Below are positions 3,002-35,575 of a stretch of 37,995 bases of DNA, in pieces (the stretch's first letter is position 1; every line of letters starts with the position of its first letter). Location: positions 1 to 37,995 of IMG/VR virus record IMGVR_UViG_3300045922_000127; one strand, 5' to 3'. A program made the position numbers and the translations under genes. The DNA is from a virus. The notes under the pieces were generated by a model. The model was given only the letters and a program-made list of their open reading frames with translations. It was not told where the DNA came from and ran no database searches.

Positions 3002-3687
3002 TCAGGGTTGTGTCGGTGACGGTGAGGATGCGCCGCTGCGGGCCGTGTCAACGCCGAGCGCCTGACCGTACCGCCACGCCATCTTCGCGTTCACTTTCCG
3101 CCCGGTTCGGGCGGTGATCTCGGCGGCGACCTGCCGCCACGATCCACCGTGGGCGCGGGTGACGGTGAGGATGCGCGCCGCCTCGGCACCGAGCGGCGAG
3201 GTTTCCGGGGTGGCGTCGGGGCCGATGTGCTGCCACCAGGCGAGCCGGCCGCCGGTGTAGCGTCCGTCGCGTCGCGCTCGCTGTTTCCCGGCGACGGTGC
3301 GGGCCCGGATCATCGCCCGCTCGTACTCTGCGATAGCGCCCATGATCTGGCGTACAAGCTTGCGGCTGGCGTCGTGCGGGTCGAGGACCATGGCGTTTTC
3401 GGCGGCGTCAAGGATGGTGACGGTGGCGCCGCGCTGCCACAGCTGGGCAAGAATCCATTCTTGCAGCATGAGGTCTCTGGCGAGGCGGTCTAGTTTGCAC
3501 ACTGCCACGGTGTCGCCGGCGGTGACGGCGGCGAGGAGCGCGGCGAGGGCGGGGCGGGTGTCGATGCCTTCGGCTCCGGAGATGCCGTCGTCGGTGTGAA
3601 GGGTGATCCTCTGGCCGTTGTCTGGGTTTCGATGGTGCCGCGTTCCTGCTGGCCGATGCTTGATACGCGGGCGTAGCCGTGCAACAT
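3002..3687 (-). pseudogene. small serine recombinase (resolvase/invertase type), reading frame broken near 3607-3625
   Basis: ATG 3687 (AAGGAA 7 nt upstream) gives MLHGYARVSSIGQQERGTIETQ, which carries the catalytic Ser motif. That frame runs into Pro/Ser-rich nonsense. The -1 frame reads ITLHTDDGISGAEGIDTRPALAALLAAVTAGDTVAVCKLDRLARD...AIAEYERAMIRARTVAGK plus a C-terminal HTH (track ORF 3002..3508). Confidence 0.75.
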
Positions 3688-4468: not shown

Positions 4469-5164
4469 TCACGGCAGCCTGATTGGCATGACGAGCGCCA
4501 GCAGATCGCAACCGGTGTCGACGCCGTGGGCGGTGAACAAGGTCGGTTTGCGGTTGTCGACGAGGCGGGCGAGCTTCACCCAGTCCGCCCCGATCGCTTT
4601 CGCTGCGGCGCAGATATCCGCCAGATAGGCGGGGTTCCACGCGACCGGCTCGGATTCTTCGAGCGGGAACCCGTCCCGATCCGGTGGGAACAGCTGCTCC
4701 CATTGCGGGTAGTCGCCTTCGAGCAGCCGCACCTGGGCGGTGGACGCCCCATCGGGGGTGATCGTGTCGATTCGCACCGACCGTCCGCCGGTCTCCAGCA
4801 CGAACCGGACCGCCGGTTCGGTGTCACCGCGCCGCACCCTGGGCGTGCCCTTCACGATCCGGACGAGATCGCCGGCGGGGATGTTCACCGGGGCGAACGG
4901 TTCACCGATGGCGACGCGTTCGGTGGTGATGGTGACGACGTGCAGCCGGTAGCTGTCGCACGCGACCAGCCGCACCCCATCGGCGCAGGTGTCGACCAGG
5001 ACACCGGTCAGCAGTGGCCGCGCCTGATCGGTGGACGCCGCCAGCGTGACCGCGTTCACCGCGGCGCGCAGTGTCGACGCGTCGACGGTGAACAGCACCC
5101 GTTCATCGTCGACGACGGCGGGGGTGACCGCCGCCGGTAGATGGTGAATCATGCTCGGATTCAT
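4469..5164 (-). CDS. truncated DnaN (DNA polymerase III beta sliding clamp)-like protein (231 aa)
   Basis: ARPLLTGVLVDTCADGVRLVACDSYRL, LLEGDYPQWEQLFP and C-terminal LALVMPIRLP match conserved DnaN blocks. GGAAGGGAAGGGA lies upstream of ATG 5164. The longer track ORF start (5320) is Arg-rich and overlaps the neighbouring gene. Confidence 0.65.
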   Translation of the reverse strand: MNPSMIHHLPAAVTPAVVDDERVLFTVDASTLRAAVNAVTLAASTDQARPLLTGVLVDTCADGVRLVACDSYRLHVVTITTERVAIGEPFAPVNIPAGDLVRIVKGTPRVRRGDTEPAVRFVLETGGRSVRIDTITPDGASTAQVRLLEGDYPQWEQLFPPDRDGFPLEESEPVAWNPAYLADICAAAKAIGADWVKLARLVDNRKPTLFTAHGVDTGCDLLALVMPIRLP

Positions 5165-5208
5165 GGTATCCCTTCCCTTCCTGTTGGTGTTTCTCGCGGT
5201 CACTCCGC

Positions 5209-5520
5209 TTACGCGTATTCCTCGACGAGCATGGCGGCAACATCCTGGGCCAGCGAGCCCGTCACTTTTTCGCTGCCCCACCAGCCGACGATCTCCGCGC
5301 CGTAGCCGGTTGCCTGCCATCCGTAAGCCTCGTGGACCATCGGGATACGTGCCTCGAGGTGAGGGCCGCCCGTGGCGAACACGACCTCAAGCGTGTAGGT
5401 GATCTCGACGCTCAACGGGACGCACTCGTCGTCGTAGTGGTCGCCGCTGAGTTTCCGCTCGAGCATGTCGCGGATCGACTCAACGTGCGCCGTGAGCTGG
5501 TCCCTGGTCTCGTTGTCCAT
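5209..5520 (-). CDS. small acidic protein, paralogue 2 (103 aa)
   Basis: MDNETRDQLTAH...DDECVPLSVEITYTLEVVFATGGPHLEARIPMVHEAYGWQATG. GGAAGGGAAGGA lies 7 nt upstream of the ATG. Confidence 0.8.
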   Translation of the reverse strand: MDNETRDQLTAHVESIRDMLERKLSGDHYDDECVPLSVEITYTLEVVFATGGPHLEARIPMVHEAYGWQATGYGAEIVGWWGSEKVTGSLAQDVAAMLVEEYA

Positions 5521-5646
5521 CGTTGCATCCTTCCCTTCCTGTTTCGCTGCTCGACACCGGTTGGTGCCGATGGTCCCCTAGCCACGCCGTGAACGTTCGC
5601 AGCCCGTGCGCTGCGCTAGGGGTGGGCCGGCTCAGCGGCCCGATGT

Positions 5647-5883
5647 TCACGCCACGCCATCACCCCCACCGGGCCGCTGGAGCTGCTCGGCTGCGTCTTC
5701 CACGTCCACCCGCCGCCAAACCCACGTCCCGCCAACTTTGCGGAGCGGCGGCGGCAGGATGGCAGCCAGGTTCGGATGCAACCGAGGCTTGGTGAGCGCA
5801 ACCCTGATCGACGACATCGCCACCCCGAGATGGGCGGCGACCTCGGCGGTGTCCATGAGGTCGCCGGGTTCGATCCGGTTCAT
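5647..5883 (-). CDS. Xis/MerR-like helix-turn-helix DNA-binding protein (78 aa)
   Basis: LMDTAEVAAHLGVAMSSIRVAL ... GGTWVWRRVDVE is typical of excisionase-type HTH proteins. ATGA overlap with the upstream gene. Confidence 0.6.
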   Translation of the reverse strand: MNRIEPGDLMDTAEVAAHLGVAMSSIRVALTKPRLHPNLAAILPPPLRKVGGTWVWRRVDVEDAAEQLQRPGGGDGVA

Positions 5884-6155
5884 GCCAGCACCCCCGCGAG
5901 TGCGTTCATTGCCTCAACCGCACGCTTGATCGTCGGACTGTAACGGTATGCGCCGTCGGTGAAATGATCGTATGGCGACACCCGATCCTCGGCAAACAGG
6001 TACGCGTCGGTCGCGGCGTCAATGTCGCCGGCTTCGATCAGATCGACCACCTTGTAGATGTTGTCGACGTCTCGCGCATCCCAGCGGTCGGCTTGCGCCC
6101 ACTGTGCGGCGGCGCACAAGGCGCGCACCACCTCGTCGGGGTCGATGCGGTTCAT
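5880..6155 (-). CDS. hypothetical protein (91 aa)
   Basis: Track ORF with ATGA overlaps at both ends. No motif recognised. Confidence 0.65.
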   Translation of the reverse strand: MNRIDPDEVVRALCAAAQWAQADRWDARDVDNIYKVVDLIEAGDIDAATDAYLFAEDRVSPYDHFTDGAYRYSPTIKRAVEAMNALAGVLA

Positions 6156-6490
6156 CGCTGCACCCCCGCCACGAGCTCATTCGCCAGCTGCACCGCCTGA
6201 TTCTTCGGCTGCGGCCCTTCGAGCAGGTCATACAGGTGGTCGACCAGACGGCAGGTGGTCATCACCACGTCGTAGCTGTCGTGCAGGTTGTGGGCGGCGA
6301 TCTCCGATTGCGCCAGATAGTCGGGGCACTGCACAAACACGATGCGGCTAGCCGGATGGTGGTAGGCGCGTGCGATGAGGTCGCGGAGGTAGCGGCGGTG
6401 ACCGTAGGTGTCACCTACCACGGCGATGCTGGTGCCGACGGCGGCGACGCCAGTGGCGGCGTTGCCGGTGCCGTGACTGCTGGTCGTCAT
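6152..6490 (-). CDS. hypothetical protein (112 aa), first gene of the leftward operon
   Basis: Track ORF. GGAAGGGAAGGGAAAC lies upstream of ATG 6490. Confidence 0.7.
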   Translation of the reverse strand: MTTSSHGTGNAATGVAAVGTSIAVVGDTYGHRRYLRDLIARAYHHPASRIVFVQCPDYLAQSEIAAHNLHDSYDVVMTTCRLVDHLYDLLEGPQPKNQAVQLANELVAGVQR

Positions 6491-6537
6491 AGTTTCCCTT
6501 CCCTTCCGTGGCCCACCCGTTGCGGGCCGCTGCCCCG

Positions 6538-6566
6538 ATGGTAACGCTAACGCTGACCCCTGTCAA
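6538..6566 (-). promoter_or_regulatory. leftward promoter candidate (TTGACA-N17-TACCAT)
   Basis: On the minus strand, TTGACA is at 6566-6561 and TACCAT at 6543-6538 with a 17-nt spacer, about 45 nt upstream of ATG 6490. Confidence 0.55.
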
Positions 6567-6637
6567 GCCATACGCGACACCGCCCGCCACCCGAACTAGT
6601 CGAGCAGCGGGCGGTGTGCAGTCAGTCAGTCAATCAT

Positions 6638-6718
6638 CTAGCTCACGCACGTAGCGAGCCGCCAATCAGCCCACTCGCCGAGCAGCTCCAGCACCTCGAT
6701 CTTCTTCGCCATCGTCAT
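6638..6718 (-). CDS. possible 26-aa leader micro-ORF
   Basis: GAGGAAGGA (6730-6722), then ATG 6718, giving MTMAKKIEVLELLGEWADWRLATCVS. It lies between two tandem promoters. Very short. Confidence 0.2.
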   Translation of the reverse strand: MTMAKKIEVLELLGEWADWRLATCVS

Positions 6719-6765
6719 GCATCCTTCCTCATCGAGAGCCTGCACCATACAAGCCACCACACCCG

Positions 6766-6795
6766 ATCATAGCGCCGGCGCTAGCCAAGCGTCAA
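6766..6795 (-). promoter_or_regulatory. leftward promoter candidate (TTGACG-N18-TATGAT) overlapped by a 14-bp palindrome
   Basis: On the minus strand, TTGACG is at 6795-6790 and TATGAT at 6771-6766. The palindrome TAGCGCCGGCGCTA (6770-6783) covers the -10 edge and the spacer. Confidence 0.55.
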
Positions 6796-6858
6796 GCACA
6801 ACCCCGAGCACCACGACGACGACCTCGACGACCTCGCCGAGCCGCGTCGAGGTGAGCC

Positions 6859-6959
6859 GTGCCGGCACACGGCACGACGTACCGCCACAAGGCACACCGC
6901 CGCCTGCCGTGCCACCACACGGCACACTGTGCCGCACCACGGCACACGGCACACGGCAC
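6859..6959. repeat. cluster of ten GGCAC/GTGCC pentamers including three tandem CACGGCA heptamers
   Basis: GGCAC starts at 6864, 6871, 6891, 6921, 6941, 6948 and 6955. GTGCC starts at 6859, 6909 and 6929. Palindromes GTGCCGGCAC (6859-6868) and GGCACACTGTGCC (6921-6933). Heptamer run at 6938-6958. Confidence 0.85.
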
Positions 6960-6970
6960 AGGCTGGAGTG

Positions 6971-7120
6971 CTGCTAACTACTGCTAGCAGACTGCTAACT
7001 CCAGTTAGCAGAGTGCGAACTCCAGCAAGCAGGCTGCTAACTACTGTTAGCACACTGCGAACTACCGCTAGCAGACTGCTAACTACAGCAAGCACCCGTC
7101 CTGCTAACTAAAGTTAGCAC
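6971..7120. repeat. seven tandem 20-bp imperfect palindromes, consensus CTGCTAACT-NN-AGTTAGCAG
   Basis: Units start at 6971, 6992 (perfect arms), 7013, 7034, 7055 and 7076 with an exact 21-bp period, then at 7101. Confidence 0.9.
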
Positions 7121-7418
7121 CCCTCGACGTGTCCAATGTCAAGACACCAGACACGCGCCGGCGCGTACAGGCTTGCCGCGAGTGCCACCACCACCACAAC
7201 ACGCCTGCTCAGCACACCTACGCCACCACCCGGGGCCATGCATCGACCTCGACGGGTCGAGGTAGGGCACTCCCGCCAGCCGCACACGAGCGCACGCAAC
7301 CGGGCAAGTGCCGAGGCACCCGGCGGCGTGTGTGTTGTGTCTCCTTCTCTGCTGTGTTCACTTTTCGTGGTGGGGTGTGTTGTGGGTGGTTTCGTGTTGG
7401 TGGGTTGGTGGTGGGGAT

Positions 7419-7466
7419 GGGGGCGCCGCCCGCTGTTGCGGGCGGAGGCGGCGCCCCCTTCGTTCT
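7419..7466 (+). terminator. strong GC hairpin followed by a T-rich tail
   Basis: GGGGGCGCCGCC (7419-7430) pairs with GGCGGCGCCCCC (7447-7458), with an inner CGC/GCG stem, followed by TTCGTTCT. Confidence 0.45.
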
Positions 7467-7528
7467 GGGGCGTTGGTTGCCTGGTTACGTGCCCCCCCTT
7501 CGGTTGCCGCACCCGAAGTCCCGACCGT

Positions 7529-7550
7529 TGTGGATATCTGTGTGGATATC
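7529..7550. repeat. direct repeat TGTGGATATC x2 (12-bp spacing)
   Basis: Copies at 7529-7538 and 7541-7550. Each contains the GATATC palindrome. Confidence 0.8.
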
Positions 7551-7856
7551 CGAGCACGGTTCACGCTCGTTCCCACCGTGCAGGTGGGGTGTTGTGTGTT
7601 GGTCGTCCCACGGCTTACACGCTGCTGGTGTTGCAGCTCGCGCCCGAGTGTCCTGACGCCTTCGGCGCTTCCGCGTGGGACCGGTCCCCGTTTCCGGCCA
7701 CTTTCCCCTCCGCTGGCTGACCAGGCTGATGTGCGGGTTCGGGGCTTGCTCCCTCACCTCCTGTCGTCCCGACGGTGGTGGGGCTGGGTTGTTGCGAGGG
7801 GATGATGGCATGGGGTGGGGGGCGGTGTCAAGCATCAGCGACGCTGGTTGGGTACG

Positions 7857-9800
7857 ATGCTTGTTGTGCCGCGGCGACGGATCGACCCTTCAGATGTGGC
7901 CCGCTACTGGGAGCTGCGAGCGATCGGGTGGAATATTCAGAACGCAGCCCGCGACGTTGGGATACACGTCAACACGGCGTCGAAGTGGGAGAAGAAAGCC
8001 CGCGACGCCCGCGAAGCGACGAAAGCGCACACGAGGGAGATCGCGGCGGCGCTCGAAGGTGGGATGCAACGCTCCACGGCGCGGCGGGAGGCGTTCAGCG
8101 ACGAGCTGAACGGACCCATCCCCCTCTCGGCGCTGTGCGCCGAGGCAAGGAAAGGGTTGGAGGACTTCGAATACTTCCGCAGGGTGTACCTGGGTCGGGT
8201 GCCGTCACCGTGGCAGGTCGAAGCCGCGTACAAGATCAAAGCGCTGCTGGAATCCGACGACAAAGAACGCGTCGTGCTGAACGTCGCCCCCGGCGTCGGG
8301 AAATCCACCCTGTGGCACGACATTGCGGTGTGGATGATCTGCCGCGACCGCTCCATCCGCATCCTCATCGGCTCCATCTCCGGTGTGCTAGCGAAACAGT
8401 ATTCGGATCGGATACGCAACACCCTCGAGCGCACAGAGCCGATCATGCCCTCCGACTACGAGATCGCGAAAGGGCTCGCCGTCCCCGCCACCCGCTGCCT
8501 CGCAGTTGATTACGGCAGGTTCCGCCCCATCTCGGCTGGCAGCTTGTGGCGCAAAGAGGAGTTCATCGTCGAACAGCACGGACAGCAGGCGATCAACAAC
8601 AAAGAACCCACCGTCTCCGCGTACGGGATGGACGCCGAGTTCATCGGCCACCGCGCCAACCTGTGCCTGTTCGACGACGTAGCCAACACTGAGAACGCGA
8701 AAGAATCCGCCGCCCGCGACCGCCTCATCGAAAAATGGGACGCGGTCGCAGAAGCCCGCGTCGAAGCCGGCGGCCTCCTCGCCGTCATCGGGCAACGCCT
8801 AGGACCAAACGACCTGTACGCCCACTGCTTGGCGAAGAAAACATGGGACCCCGACGACCCCGACGTCGAGCAGGAAACCCCCATGTACCATCACCTGGTT
8901 TACAAGGCGTACTACGAAGAGCTCGACACCGGCATCGAATCGAAACGCCCCAACGCCCCCGCCTGGCCGAACGGCCCCCTGCTCGACCCGAAACGCCTCC
9001 CGTGGAAAGACCTCGTGCAAATCCGCCAGGCGAACCGCCAAAAATTCGAGGTTGTCTACCAGCAGAACGCCAACACCGACACCAACGCGTTGATCTTGCG
9101 TGTGTGGGCCACCGGCGGGATGGGACCGGACGGGGTGCTGTACCCCGGGTGCATCGACGACGACCGCCAACCAGGGCACCCGCCACCAGACCTGAAACCG
9201 CCGGTGCTGTCCATCGGCACCATCGACCCGTCCCCCACCGAATACTGGGCTGTCGAATGGTGGCTGCACCAACCAGAAACCGGCCTGCGATGGCTGGTTG
9301 ACATGGAACGCCGCCGCATGACCGCCGAGGAAGTGTTGGGCTACGACACGATCACCGGCACCCACTTCGGGATCATGGAAGACTGGCAGAACCGCTCCGC
9401 CGCCCAACACTATCCGATCACCCACTGGGTGGTGGAAACGAACGCGGCGCAACGATTCCTCCTCGCCCACGACTTCGTGCGCCGCTGGCAAGCGAAACAC
9501 CGAGTCAACATCATCCCCCACCAGACACACGCCAACAAATGGGACGAACGGTTCGGCATCGAAGCGTTGCTCCCCCCGCTGTGGCGGTCAGGTGCGGTGC
9601 GAATCCCCACACTCCGATCCAACTGGAAAACGTTGGCGTTCATCGACGAGATGGTGTCATGGAAACCTGACAAGAAACGCGGCACCGACATGGTTATGGC
9701 ACACTGGTTCGCGGAGCTTCACTGGCCGAACGTCCAACAGATCAAACCCCCACCCCGCCAGTGGAGACCCACGTTCATGCAACCCGCGAGGAGCGCCTGA
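7857..9800 (+). CDS. terL: terminase large subunit with an N-terminal HTH domain
   Basis: N-terminal WNIQNAARDVGIHVNTASKWEKK (HTH), Walker A NVAPGVGKST and Walker B-like LCLFDD. It is the first gene of the late block. Alternative GTG start at 7815. Confidence 0.85.
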   Translation: MLVVPRRRIDPSDVARYWELRAIGWNIQNAARDVGIHVNTASKWEKKARDAREATKAHTREIAAALEGGMQRSTARREAFSDELNGPIPLSALCAEARKGLEDFEYFRRVYLGRVPSPWQVEAAYKIKALLESDDKERVVLNVAPGVGKSTLWHDIAVWMICRDRSIRILIGSISGVLAKQYSDRIRNTLERTEPIMPSDYEIAKGLAVPATRCLAVDYGRFRPISAGSLWRKEEFIVEQHGQQAINNKEPTVSAYGMDAEFIGHRANLCLFDDVANTENAKESAARDRLIEKWDAVAEARVEAGGLLAVIGQRLGPNDLYAHCLAKKTWDPDDPDVEQETPMYHHLVYKAYYEELDTGIESKRPNAPAWPNGPLLDPKRLPWKDLVQIRQANRQKFEVVYQQNANTDTNALILRVWATGGMGPDGVLYPGCIDDDRQPGHPPPDLKPPVLSIGTIDPSPTEYWAVEWWLHQPETGLRWLVDMERRRMTAEEVLGYDTITGTHFGIMEDWQNRSAAQHYPITHWVVETNAAQRFLLAHDFVRRWQAKHRVNIIPHQTHANKWDERFGIEALLPPLWRSGAVRIPTLRSNWKTLAFIDEMVSWKPDKKRGTDMVMAHWFAELHWPNVQQIKPPPRQWRPTFMQPARSA

Positions 9801-33384: not shown

Positions 33385-33606
33385 ATGGAGTTGGGTGAAG
33401 CGCAGACGGCGCTAGCGGCACGCATCAGCCACCTGCGACGGCAAGCCGGATGGACCAACGAAGAACTCGCCGACCGCTCCGGGTTGTCGCCACGCACCAT
33501 CACCGCGCTGCAAACCCCCTACGCGAACCCCACGTTCATCACGCTGCTGGTGCTCGCAGACACGTTCGGTGTCACCCTGTCCGACCTGTTAGGAGACAAC
33601 CTGTGA
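33385..33606 (+). CDS. XRE/Cro-CI family HTH regulator (73 aa)
   Basis: LRRQAGWTNEELADRSGLSPRTITALQT ... LLVLADTFGVTLSDLL. It is the first gene of the early block. Alternative GTG start at 33376, inside the -10. Confidence 0.75.
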   Translation: MELGEAQTALAARISHLRRQAGWTNEELADRSGLSPRTITALQTPYANPTFITLLVLADTFGVTLSDLLGDNL

Positions 33607-34508
33607 CCGTCCGCACGATCCCGAAACCCGAACACGGCTCCCCCGAATGGCTGGCGGTCCGGTGGGCTGACGAGCACGGCCTGCGACGCATCCCAGCTTC
33701 CGCCGCCGCAGCGATCCACGGTGAGCACCGCTACATCAACCCCGGTGACCTCGCCCTGGAGATGCTCTCGGACAGCCCACCGCCACCAGGCGGCGAGAGC
33801 GCGGCGATGCGCCGAGGTGCGTTCCTGGAACCGTCGCTGTTGGCGTGGGCCGCAGCAGAGCTCGGCCACGACGTGTACGCACCCGACCGCATGTACGTCG
33901 CCGGACGGTTCATCGCCACCATCGACGGCATCAGCGGCGACGTGTCCGCCCCGACACTGGTGGTGGAAGCGAAAACCACCCGCGGAAACTGGACCGGGAC
34001 ACTGCCCCGCCAGTGGTATTGGCAAGGTGTCCAGCAGGCGATCTGCACCGGGCTGGATCGCATCGTGTGGGTCATCCTGGACGGCAACCTGGACCTCGCG
34101 TTGCACGAGCAGACCGTTGAGGCGTGGGAGAAACAGCACCACACCGAGAAAGCGGAGGAATGGTTGGCGGCGATCGACATGGGGATGATCCCCGCGTGGG
34201 TGGGGCTCAACGTGGAACAGCTCGCACGCCTGCATCCGCAACCGGAGGTTCCCACCGTCGAGCTGCCATCCCATCTGCATGAGGCGGTGGCGGATTGGCA
34301 GGCTGCGAACGCTCGGATGGCAGCCGACAAGAAGATCGTTGAGGACTGCAAGGTGAGGATCGCCAAGTTCCTCGCAGACGAAGGCGCGGAGGAAGCGACG
34401 ATAGACGGGGTGACCGTCGCCTCGTGGGCTCCGTACGACAGGAAGGGTTACACGGTGCCCCCGTCGCAGGGGCGGTCGCTGAAGCTGGTGAAAGGAGCCA
34501 GGCGATGA
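33603..34508 (+). CDS. YqaJ-type (lambda Exo-like, PD-(D/E)XK) recombination exonuclease
   Basis: GSPEWLAVRWADEHGLRRIPASAAAAI, ATIDGI and VVEAKT blocks. GTGA overlap upstream and ATGA overlap with RecT. Confidence 0.8.
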   Translation: MTVRTIPKPEHGSPEWLAVRWADEHGLRRIPASAAAAIHGEHRYINPGDLALEMLSDSPPPPGGESAAMRRGAFLEPSLLAWAAAELGHDVYAPDRMYVAGRFIATIDGISGDVSAPTLVVEAKTTRGNWTGTLPRQWYWQGVQQAICTGLDRIVWVILDGNLDLALHEQTVEAWEKQHHTEKAEEWLAAIDMGMIPAWVGLNVEQLARLHPQPEVPTVELPSHLHEAVADWQAANARMAADKKIVEDCKVRIAKFLADEGAEEATIDGVTVASWAPYDRKGYTVPPSQGRSLKLVKGARR

Positions 34509-35575
34509 CAGAGATGGTGCCCATCTCGGATTGGAACGGGATGATGCAGGTGGCGGGCACGTTGGCGAAATCGTCGATGGTGCCCGCCGCGTATCGGGGG
34601 AAACCGGAGAACGTGCTGTTGGCGATGATTGCCGGTCAAGATTTCGGTTGGTCGCCGGCGATGGCGTTGCGGTCCTTTCATATCATCGAAGGGGTCCCGT
34701 CGCTCAAACCGGAGATCATGTTGGCGTTGGTGCGTCGCGCTGGCCACTCGGTGTCGGGGGATGTGACCGATGAACGCGCTCAGGTTGTGGGAACACGCGC
34801 CGACACTGGGGACACGATGACTGTGATTTACAGCATGGACGACGCCCGCCGAGCGAACCTGTTGGGGAAACAGAACTGGCGGAACTACCCGCGGGACATG
34901 ATGTGGGCGCGGGCCGTGTCAGCGTTGTGCCGTCGCCTGTTCGCGGATGTGACGTTGGGGGTGGCGTACACCCCAGACGAGCTGGGGGCGACCGTCAACA
35001 GCGAAGGCGACGTGATCGACGTGCAAGAACACCCCCAGGGAGCGTTGCCGGCAGCCGAGCAGACAGCGGACCGGGAAGCGGAACGCCTGGAAGCCGAACG
35101 CCGGTTCCGCGAAGCATGTGACCGCAAAGGCGTCGACCCGGAGGAAGTGTTGCGGATCGCGCAGAAGGAACGGTTCGAGTTGGAGGACCTGCCGTTCCTG
35201 CGGGACGTGTTCAAAGGGATTGTGCGAGCAATGGACGCGCACCCCTCCACACTGGAACCTGTCGACGACACAGCAGGACCCGCTGACGTGGTGGACATGG
35301 GTGCGAAGCGGGCGGCGAAAACTCGCAAAACCGCTACGGCACAGCCATCAGACGAGGATGCGTCGGTGGGGATGACATTGGAGCAGCGGCGGCGTGTCAT
35401 GGCGCTCTCGAACGATCTCGGCTGGGATCGTGACACCCGGTTGAGGTTCTCAGCCGACATGCTGGGTGTGAACATCAAGTCGTTTTCGGACCTGTCGCAG
35501 TTCCAGGTCGATTACCTGATCGGGTTGATGACCGAACTGCGAGATTCAACAGACACACACAAGGAGACGGATTGA
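34505..35575 (+). CDS. recT: RecT-family single-strand annealing protein
   Basis: MVPAAYRGKPENVLLAMIAGQDFGWSPAMALRSFHIIEGVPSLKPEIMLALVRRAG ... NWRNYPRDMMWARAVSALCRRLFADV. Confidence 0.85.
   Translation: MTEMVPISDWNGMMQVAGTLAKSSMVPAAYRGKPENVLLAMIAGQDFGWSPAMALRSFHIIEGVPSLKPEIMLALVRRAGHSVSGDVTDERAQVVGTRADTGDTMTVIYSMDDARRANLLGKQNWRNYPRDMMWARAVSALCRRLFADVTLGVAYTPDELGATVNSEGDVIDVQEHPQGALPAAEQTADREAERLEAERRFREACDRKGVDPEEVLRIAQKERFELEDLPFLRDVFKGIVRAMDAHPSTLEPVDDTAGPADVVDMGAKRAAKTRKTATAQPSDEDASVGMTLEQRRRVMALSNDLGWDRDTRLRFSADMLGVNIKSFSDLSQFQVDYLIGLMTELRDSTDTHKETD

Follow-up and report, generated by a model that had tools for sequence, protein, structure and literature searches.

The transcript read at the right end of the phage T7 genome serves packaging at a cis-acting DNA site. 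The T7 packaging signal is cited in PMC13236587, and RNA II of plasmid ColE1 is a pre-primer, a transcript aimed at a cis-acting DNA site needed for replication (PMC6380287). In phage phi29, the packaging RNA (pRNA) is encoded 147–320 bp from the genome's left end, and leftward transcription there reaches the genome end (PMC11476376). ROOL and GOLLD are phage-borne, highly structured RNAs of unknown function (PMC12286853, PMC5737381), and raiA RNA has a conserved closing stem, P1, and a chromosomal raiA–comFC context (PMC10861870, PMC12968392). Here we analyze a complete phage record of 37,995 nt (IMG/VR record IMGVR_UViG_3300045922_000127), referred to throughout as the window. Its largest gap, flanked by a leftward early operon on one side and by rightward large terminase and portal genes on the other, very probably contains a real and uncatalogued gene for a structured non-coding RNA, read away from the terminase toward a putative genome-end motif.

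The sequence of this phage is present in hot-spring mat metagenomes. The two ends of the record share 127 nt, which is an assembly overlap, and the genome carries a whiB gene, which indicates an actinobacterial host. The nearest cultured phages, by terminase (23–24%) and capsid (35–38%), are the Streptomyces cluster BF podoviruses, in which the terminase is gene 1 and the genome ends are non-coding. Their direct terminal repeats of 253–276 bp lie in the gap equivalent to that of the window (PMC9753666).

Results

A conserved, probable RNA gene beside the terminase

The first sign of the RNA was a block at 7631–7752 that proved conserved when the gap was compared with that of relatives. Between the window and the relative L003, the RNA differs by 4 substitutions in 307 nt (1.3%), three of them in loops or linkers. 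The corresponding values are 18.3% at third codon positions of the terminase and 22.7% in the DNA to the left of the end motif described below. The RNA also has its own promoter: among 79 distinct loci, 68 (2.7 expected) have an extended −10 box 80–150 nt ahead of the RNA core, and in the window the −10 ends 101 nt upstream of it. Transcription of the RNA from this promoter is predicted.

We gathered 160 further loci by terminase alone. Strict criteria, which ask for both the element and its promoter, are passed by 70 of the 80 loci with at least 3.9 kb upstream, and most of the remaining 10, the window among them, carry the RNA by model or inspection. The RNA occupies the same place beside the terminase in well over a hundred related phage contigs. 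Its orientation is opposite to the terminase, toward the end motif, in all 92 RNA-bearing loci with packaging genes in view. The distance from the RNA promoter to the terminase varies from tens of nt up to 1.9 kb, with variable genes between them. The RNA 3′ end lies 104–285 nt from the end motif in 67 of 70 loci, many of which are near-duplicates; in the window this distance is 174 nt.

A search with the RNA led to a second family of phages, whose terminase is of PHROG 979/2 and in which this RNA keeps its position and direction. These actinophage-like loci (L172, L173, L199, L202, L208, L218, L221 and L224) have a separate small-subunit-like gene of 160–195 aa directly before the terminase. 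The RNA core was also observed in two more distant contigs (L190:367–420 and L220:10709–10732), where its flanks are unlike all four subtypes described below. Between the terminase and the main RNA, many relatives carry a second, short conserved hairpin element (about 60–80 nt) with its own extended −10 promoter; it occurs in two sequence versions (L012, L018, L023, L047 and L092) and is absent from the window.

Structure and covariation of the RNA

The RNA is 175–310 nt long and falls into at least four subtypes (A, B0, B1 and C) built around a common core. The order of elements is an optional 5′ GNRA hairpin, a long stem with an A-rich internal loop, the core hairpin, a long-range helix around a variable domain, a 3′ domain and a G-run. 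In subtype B1 the apical loop of the long stem forms a pseudoknot. All subtypes terminate in the G-run, mostly without a classical U-tract terminator. The 20-nt core is near-invariant across A, B1 and C and altered in B0. Its stem appears as CCG/CGG, CCU/AGG, CCA/UGG or CUC/GAG, its loop as GAAA or GUAA, and a G–C pair of the lower stem is changed to A–U in 8 of 30 sequences.

Single-sequence folding was no better than that of shuffled sequences on either strand (window RNA, z −0.53), so the case for the RNA rests on comparison. In an unbiased mutual-information scan of the 30 B1 sequences, 13 of the top 15 pairs were helix pairs. The named B1 structure is paired in 95% of cells and shows two-sided change in 23 of 39 pairs, a value reached by none of 500 shuffles, and slid controls pair at 25–40%. 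Shuffles ignore relatedness, so the argument leans on the slid control and on the large number of pair types. Subtype A, with 8 sequences including the window, is 96% paired, with two-sided change in 9 of 22 pairs. G–U pairs and GNRA loops fall on the promoter strand. A covariance model built from 30 other phages, with subtype A left out, matched the window at 7682–7744 (E 2.5e-6), the sole strong match in the genome. The same model matched L004 (E 1.6e-14), the B0 loci (1e-9 to 1e-23) and, at the core only, subtype C. Compensatory changes above controls, a promoter of its own and no conserved reading frame, features expected of a structured RNA gene, are found at this locus.

Comparison with catalogued RNAs

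Rfam 15 gave only chance matches of microRNA and small nucleolar RNA type on the window, far below threshold and none on the RNA. Among relatives, no match was found in 13 loci at the gathering score or in 7 loci at E ≤ 2 (one locus shared). A blastn search of the region and two RNA subtypes against 50,697 GenBank phages returned chance matches only.

A kinship with raiA motif RNA (RF03072), suggested by words at the 3′ end, was checked both ways, with genuine raiA loci included, and had to be rejected. There are likenesses: raiA RNA is about 200–300 nt long, occurs in Actinomycetota, and has a hairpin-loop pseudoknot, an A-rich asymmetric internal loop and variable peripheral hairpins, and short look-alike words stand near the 3′ end. 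However, the raiA model, with a family threshold of 101.3 bits and scores of 112–172 bits for true raiA loci, gave no match at E ≤ 10 in the window or four relatives, and our models gave none in the raiA loci tested. The P1 stem, with its GU and GGU bulges, and the linker after pseudoknot 1 were absent by eye when compared with alignments A2, A3 and A5. The raiA–comFC setting was not seen either, since the copies with packaging genes in view all adjoin phage terminase genes. No description of this RNA was found in the literature searched, a search that did not extend to the sequences of the 10,006 unnamed candidates reported by Fremin et al. 2023 (PMC10690425), which may include parts of it.

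A probable end motif at the likely junction of genome ends

Beyond the RNA, the end motif was picked up by a weight matrix in 74 of 80 loci; control DNA gave no match. In the window it occurs once (score 36; next best −13). More distant relatives have the motif with shifted spacing, and strand composition switches at it in 59 of 82 loci. In phages of the PHROG 979/2 family, the same RNA is succeeded by another end-type motif. The motif thus goes with the terminase, unlike the RNA. We consider the motif at 7297–7370 to be probably a terminase-recognition site or a terminal-repeat boundary.

In the BF phages (Beephvirinae: Manuel, FlowerPower and Abafar) the terminase gene lies 620–670 bp from the left end, and the inner repeat boundary falls in a conserved motif of a G-run, CTC and a C-run after an AT-rich patch. 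The likeness of this motif to that of the window is in layout only. BF phages also have a conserved, structured and partly covarying element of their own, which lies on the strand of the terminase, in the interval from the terminal repeat to the start of that gene (L169:425–650, L171 and L250–L255). Against the RNA models it scored E 1.1 or worse, and two short words in common with subtype C were not counted as homology. Two further observations fit a terminal repeat and were not counted as evidence: one contig, spanning 6952–7322, is deeper (11.2) than its identical neighbors (2.3–3.5), and the contig of a related strain begins at 7282. Among relatives, contig ends showed no pile-up at any single position.

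Together, these results make it highly likely that the two ends of a linear podophage genome, one with short direct terminal repeats, meet in the gap. Its right end would carry the two early promoters and variable arrays, the end site would lie at about 7297–7370, and the left end would carry the host-polymerase promoter from which the RNA is read outward, back to back with the terminase promoter. The gap as such is an ordinary genome-end junction, as non-coding ends are usual in these podophages.

Coding status of the gap

The original prediction described 6491–7856 as a gene-free divergent control region in a tightly packed genome. Tight packing elsewhere was borne out. A gene map drawn from codon usage has 50 genes and 49 gaps, 35 of them of 80 nt or less (several longer ones stem from late start calls), and the gap at 6748–7896, with 1147 nt, is the largest, followed by one of 395 nt. 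The gap is also non-coding in relatives with 96% and 76% identical terminases. Ordinary genes at this place in relatives would have told against the prediction; many relatives do have small variable genes between the terminase and the RNA promoter, whereas the stretch from the RNA to the end motif looked non-coding in the loci inspected. The region is not strictly gene-free. The micro-open reading frame (ORF) at 6638–6718 is a gene of 26 codons that aligns to the N-terminus of a 102-aa gene in L003 and has no Pfam match, so the claim that no ORF has a ribosome-binding site or normal codon bias holds, for codon bias, for the long ORFs and fails for this one. T-rich third positions were confirmed (0.22–0.27 in the plus frames, 0.04–0.08 in the terminase, portal and capsid genes), while the statement that five frames are open over 7129–7835 was incorrect, as each of the six frames holds 1–3 stops.

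ORFs of 116–194 aa lie on both strands of the gap, and some are annotated in relatives by automatic gene callers. They might be real protein genes across 7114–7835, such as a hidden small terminase or an initiator. However, codon-position GC is flat over 7114–7835 (0.62–0.70), the codon scores of the long ORFs are −0.10 to −0.38 (control genes, +0.04 to +0.45), and the three plus-strand ORFs have no PHROG match. Indels of 1 nt relative to close strains run all through these ORFs, and conservation tracks base pairs. The protein-gene explanation is therefore largely refuted, and we regard it as hardly credible.

An HTH_36 initiator-like gene lies between the terminase and the RNA promoter in four lineages. 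A hidden copy in the window, suggested by L002 and L006, was sought by tblastn and not found. Variable small genes rich in Lys and Arg stand directly upstream of the terminase in many relatives (for example, L005:2198–2563), and the one tested had no PHROG or Pfam match.

Promoters, hairpins and repeats

The two tandem leftward promoters of the original prediction exist, yet the total is three sigma70-type promoters (7831, 6795 and 6566), with 0.4 expected by chance. The region is thus regulatory in the ordinary sense of early promoters. All four predicted hairpins fold, including that at 7242–7263, but the one at 7498–7518 is weak by itself (about −7 kcal/mol) and belongs to the RNA. The hairpin at 7419–7458 is a possible terminator or pause site without a U-tract.

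Three repeat families are indeed present, in arrays at 6810–6840, 6858–6960 and 6970–7120. Repeat-rich DNA of unconserved sequence follows the end motif in 58 of 82 loci, so the three families of the window are the local version of a family habit. The palindromes at 6970–7120, of which no other locus of the 82 has two or more copies, are probably protein-binding sites in or beside the terminal repeat. In L004, a relative with 76% identity, a cluster of DnaA-box-like repeats (5100–5200) lies just past the end motif, where the window has its 21-bp array.

The proposed role as a replication hub was not borne out in this analysis. Two DnaA boxes with one mismatch each, at 7529 and 7541, form the arms of an RNA hairpin, while perfect ones occur near the end motif in just 6 of 82 loci, leaving a DnaA origin unsupported. 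The role in packaging finds inferential support in the end motif, which tracks the terminase family, and in the terminal repeats that BF phages have in the equivalent gap. The suggestion that the region may encode non-coding RNA is strongly supported by the comparative evidence of conservation, covariation and a dedicated promoter.

Terminase start and other genes of the window

The terminase probably starts at GTG 7866 on a leaderless message and not at the first ATG, 7857, as that ATG is not conserved in L003. A −10-like box lies 5–9 nt ahead of a start codon in 41 of 127 relatives, against 9.5 expected. An ORF at 130–588 (also given as 166–585; 140–152 aa) was considered as a possible initiator; it had no Pfam, PHROG or Atlas match, and it presumably resembles actinobacterial winged-helix hypothetical proteins. 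Other genes of the window, at 365–1342, 3002–3508, 4469–5161 and 33450–35575, are a pentapeptide-repeat protein, a resolvase fragment, a half-size beta-clamp homologue and a YqaJ/RecT pair.

Table 1. Coordinates of features in and next to the gap (positions in the window)
Feature	Position	Strand	Remarks
Structured non-coding RNA gene, ~300 nt, subtype A	7795 to ~7489	−	both ends predicted
RNA promoter (TTGACA, 18 nt, CATCAT, TG ahead of −10)	7802–7831	−	third leftward promoter
5′ hairpin of RNA	7783–7751	−	
Long RNA stem with A-rich internal loop	7744–7705	−	
Near-invariant core: 3-bp stem with GAAA tetraloop, 3-nt G-rich bulge, 3-bp lower stem	7682–7701	−	
8-bp long-range helix of RNA	7681–7674 with 7612–7605	−	
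Inner helix of RNA	7668–7664 with 7644–7640	−	
Three local RNA hairpins	7588–7532	−	
3′ hairpin of RNA	7518–7498	−	
Terminal G-run of RNA	~7497–7491	−	
GC-rich hairpin, ~30 nt past RNA G-run	7419–7458	−	−33 kcal/mol; kept in L003, not family-wide
End motif, single-copy	7297–7370		~170 nt beyond RNA
Seven imperfect palindromes, six at 21-bp phase	6970–7120		lineage-specific; one copy only in L003
Clusters of 9-bp and 7-bp (GGCAC-type) repeats	6810–6960		lineage-specific; absent from L003
Early promoter 1 (TTGACG, 18 nt, TATGAT)	6766–6795	−	kept in L003
26-codon gene, shortened homologue of 102-aa L003 gene	6638–6718	−	good ribosome-binding site; third-position GC 0.88; score +0.24
18-bp hairpin 3′ of micro-gene, terminator-like on minus strand	6577–6617	−	−34.7 kcal/mol on minus, −25.6 on plus
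Early promoter 2 (TTGACA, 17 nt, TACCAT)	6538–6566	−	upstream of leftward operon starting at 6490
Terminase gene: probable −10 box (TACGAT), probable leaderless GTG start (7866)	7853–7868	+	back to back with RNA promoter
Large terminase, PHROG 38, N-terminal helix-turn-helix	7866–9800	+	context, outside the predicted region

Discussion

We lean, with less than even confidence, toward an RNA that acts in cis at the genome end, because its orientation is fixed and its spacing is tied to the end motif and not to the terminase. The RNA would fold while being made, and its G-rich 3′ part, or a run-on transcript, would engage the DNA just before the end site. This engagement could prime or license DNA synthesis or cutting, for genome replication or for regeneration of the terminal repeat, in a mode like that of ColE1 RNA II or the T7 right-end packaging transcript. 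Consistent with this are the kept position and direction in a second family with another terminase and end motif, the G-run 3′ ends, mostly without a U-tract, the absence of an HTH_36 initiator from the window, and the lack of any polymerase, primase or helicase among the window genes in a scan that was not exhaustive.

Several observations weigh against a role in cis. The fixed place may reflect merely a permissive spot beside the end, and a compact fold that stands alone would account equally well for the many invariant unpaired bases, the GNRA loops and the pseudoknot. The pseudoknot itself is clear in B1 and not resolved in subtype A, that of the window. No sigma70-type promoter for an antisense copy-number RNA was seen on the plus strand in a crude scan of 5000–8200. 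L006 and L090 have the RNA together with an initiator-like gene, and L001, with 55% terminase identity, has no match to the RNA model. Cultured BF phages have no detectable homologue of the RNA, implying that their terminal repeats are made without it.

An abundant folded RNA that diffuses and acts in trans early in infection, as a protein decoy, an anti-defense factor or a host modulator, is possible and nearly as likely as action in cis, because subtypes swap between phages with almost identical terminases. On a terminase tree built with FastTree, subtype changed 13 times (minimum 3), with B0 and B1 exchanged between phages whose terminases are nearly identical. The genome end would then be a free spot that is read early. 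The RNA is a self-contained unit with a host-type promoter, is common to two terminase families, and has conserved unpaired bases and tertiary-type motifs; ROOL and GOLLD provide precedents of phage RNAs of unknown function (PMC12286853). However, no copy of the RNA was seen apart from the end motif or facing the other way, it does not lie near tRNA genes in the window, which has none, and no host-chromosome copy was found in 141 genomes of one class, in a search without a positive control. A part of the packaging motor is unlikely. Such an RNA would bind the prohead, portal or terminase, possibly as a ring held by loop–loop pairing, and the geometry of phi29 pRNA is the same (147–320 bp from the left end, leftward to the genome end; PMC11476376), the B1 loop pairing could be intermolecular, and no separate small terminase is seen upstream of the large terminase in the window. 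Yet one RNA subtype serves two very different terminases, one of them with its own small-subunit-like gene, and subtypes swap without a change of terminase. The occurrence of the RNA with a second terminase family also argues against a terminase-specific scaffold. Moreover, descriptions of pRNA are confined to protein-primed phi29-like phages, and none of the Rfam models gives a match.

The remaining explanations concern the molecule itself. The structure could act in single-stranded DNA, as a single-strand origin or packaging signal, because Watson–Crick covariation alone cannot separate RNA from DNA and the window RNA folds no better than its shuffles. This is quite improbable given the dedicated promoter at a fixed distance (68 of 79 loci) and the GNRA loops and many G–U pairs on the promoter strand, which would be A–C mismatches on the opposite strand. 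Less probable still is that the RNA works as a self-cleaving or processing ribozyme whose active-site element would be the GNRA-capped bulged hairpin. The near-invariant core in three subtypes speaks for it, as does the likeness of the bulged GNRA hairpin to domain V of group II introns, which is one of resemblance only. However, no Rfam ribozyme matched at E ≤ 5 in the window or E ≤ 2 in relatives, the AGC/CGC triad is absent, and the core is altered in B0.

If 7297–7370 is the end site, as we infer, the RNA resembles phi29 pRNA in being a small structured RNA gene near the left end that is read outward. It differs in having no sequence or model match to pRNA and in being common to two terminase families. 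Phi29-like phages use a gp16-type ATPase and a terminal protein, whereas a canonical large terminase (PHROG 38 or 979/2) is present in the phages here, probably together with terminal repeats. ROOL and GOLLD are about 600–800 nt or longer and often lie near tRNA genes, unlike the shorter RNA here, which is tied to the genome end and has no Rfam match. ColE1 and T7 offer a working analogy only, as there is no homology to either and a promoter for an antisense RNA I was not seen. T7 relies on a polymerase of its own and does not require a conserved fold.

This RNA is not an ordinary one. Rfam 15 lacks it, yet it is nearly universal in a common group of freshwater and hot-spring phages, and it is under stronger constraint than the silent sites of the terminase. 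With its fold conserved and its distance from the end site fixed, the RNA offers a testable handle on the start of replication or on end processing. Should the RNA act in trans, it would still count as a new, compact orphan RNA that lends itself to structure probing and cryo-electron microscopy. It is conceivable, though doubtful, that a widespread group of actinobacterial phages uses a folded, host-transcribed end RNA to prime replication, regenerate the terminal repeat or assist packaging, whatever the terminase. If so, it would be the first case of such an RNA beyond plasmids of the ColE1 type and phi29-like phages, and it would address how ends are processed in terminal-repeat phages without an RNA polymerase of their own.
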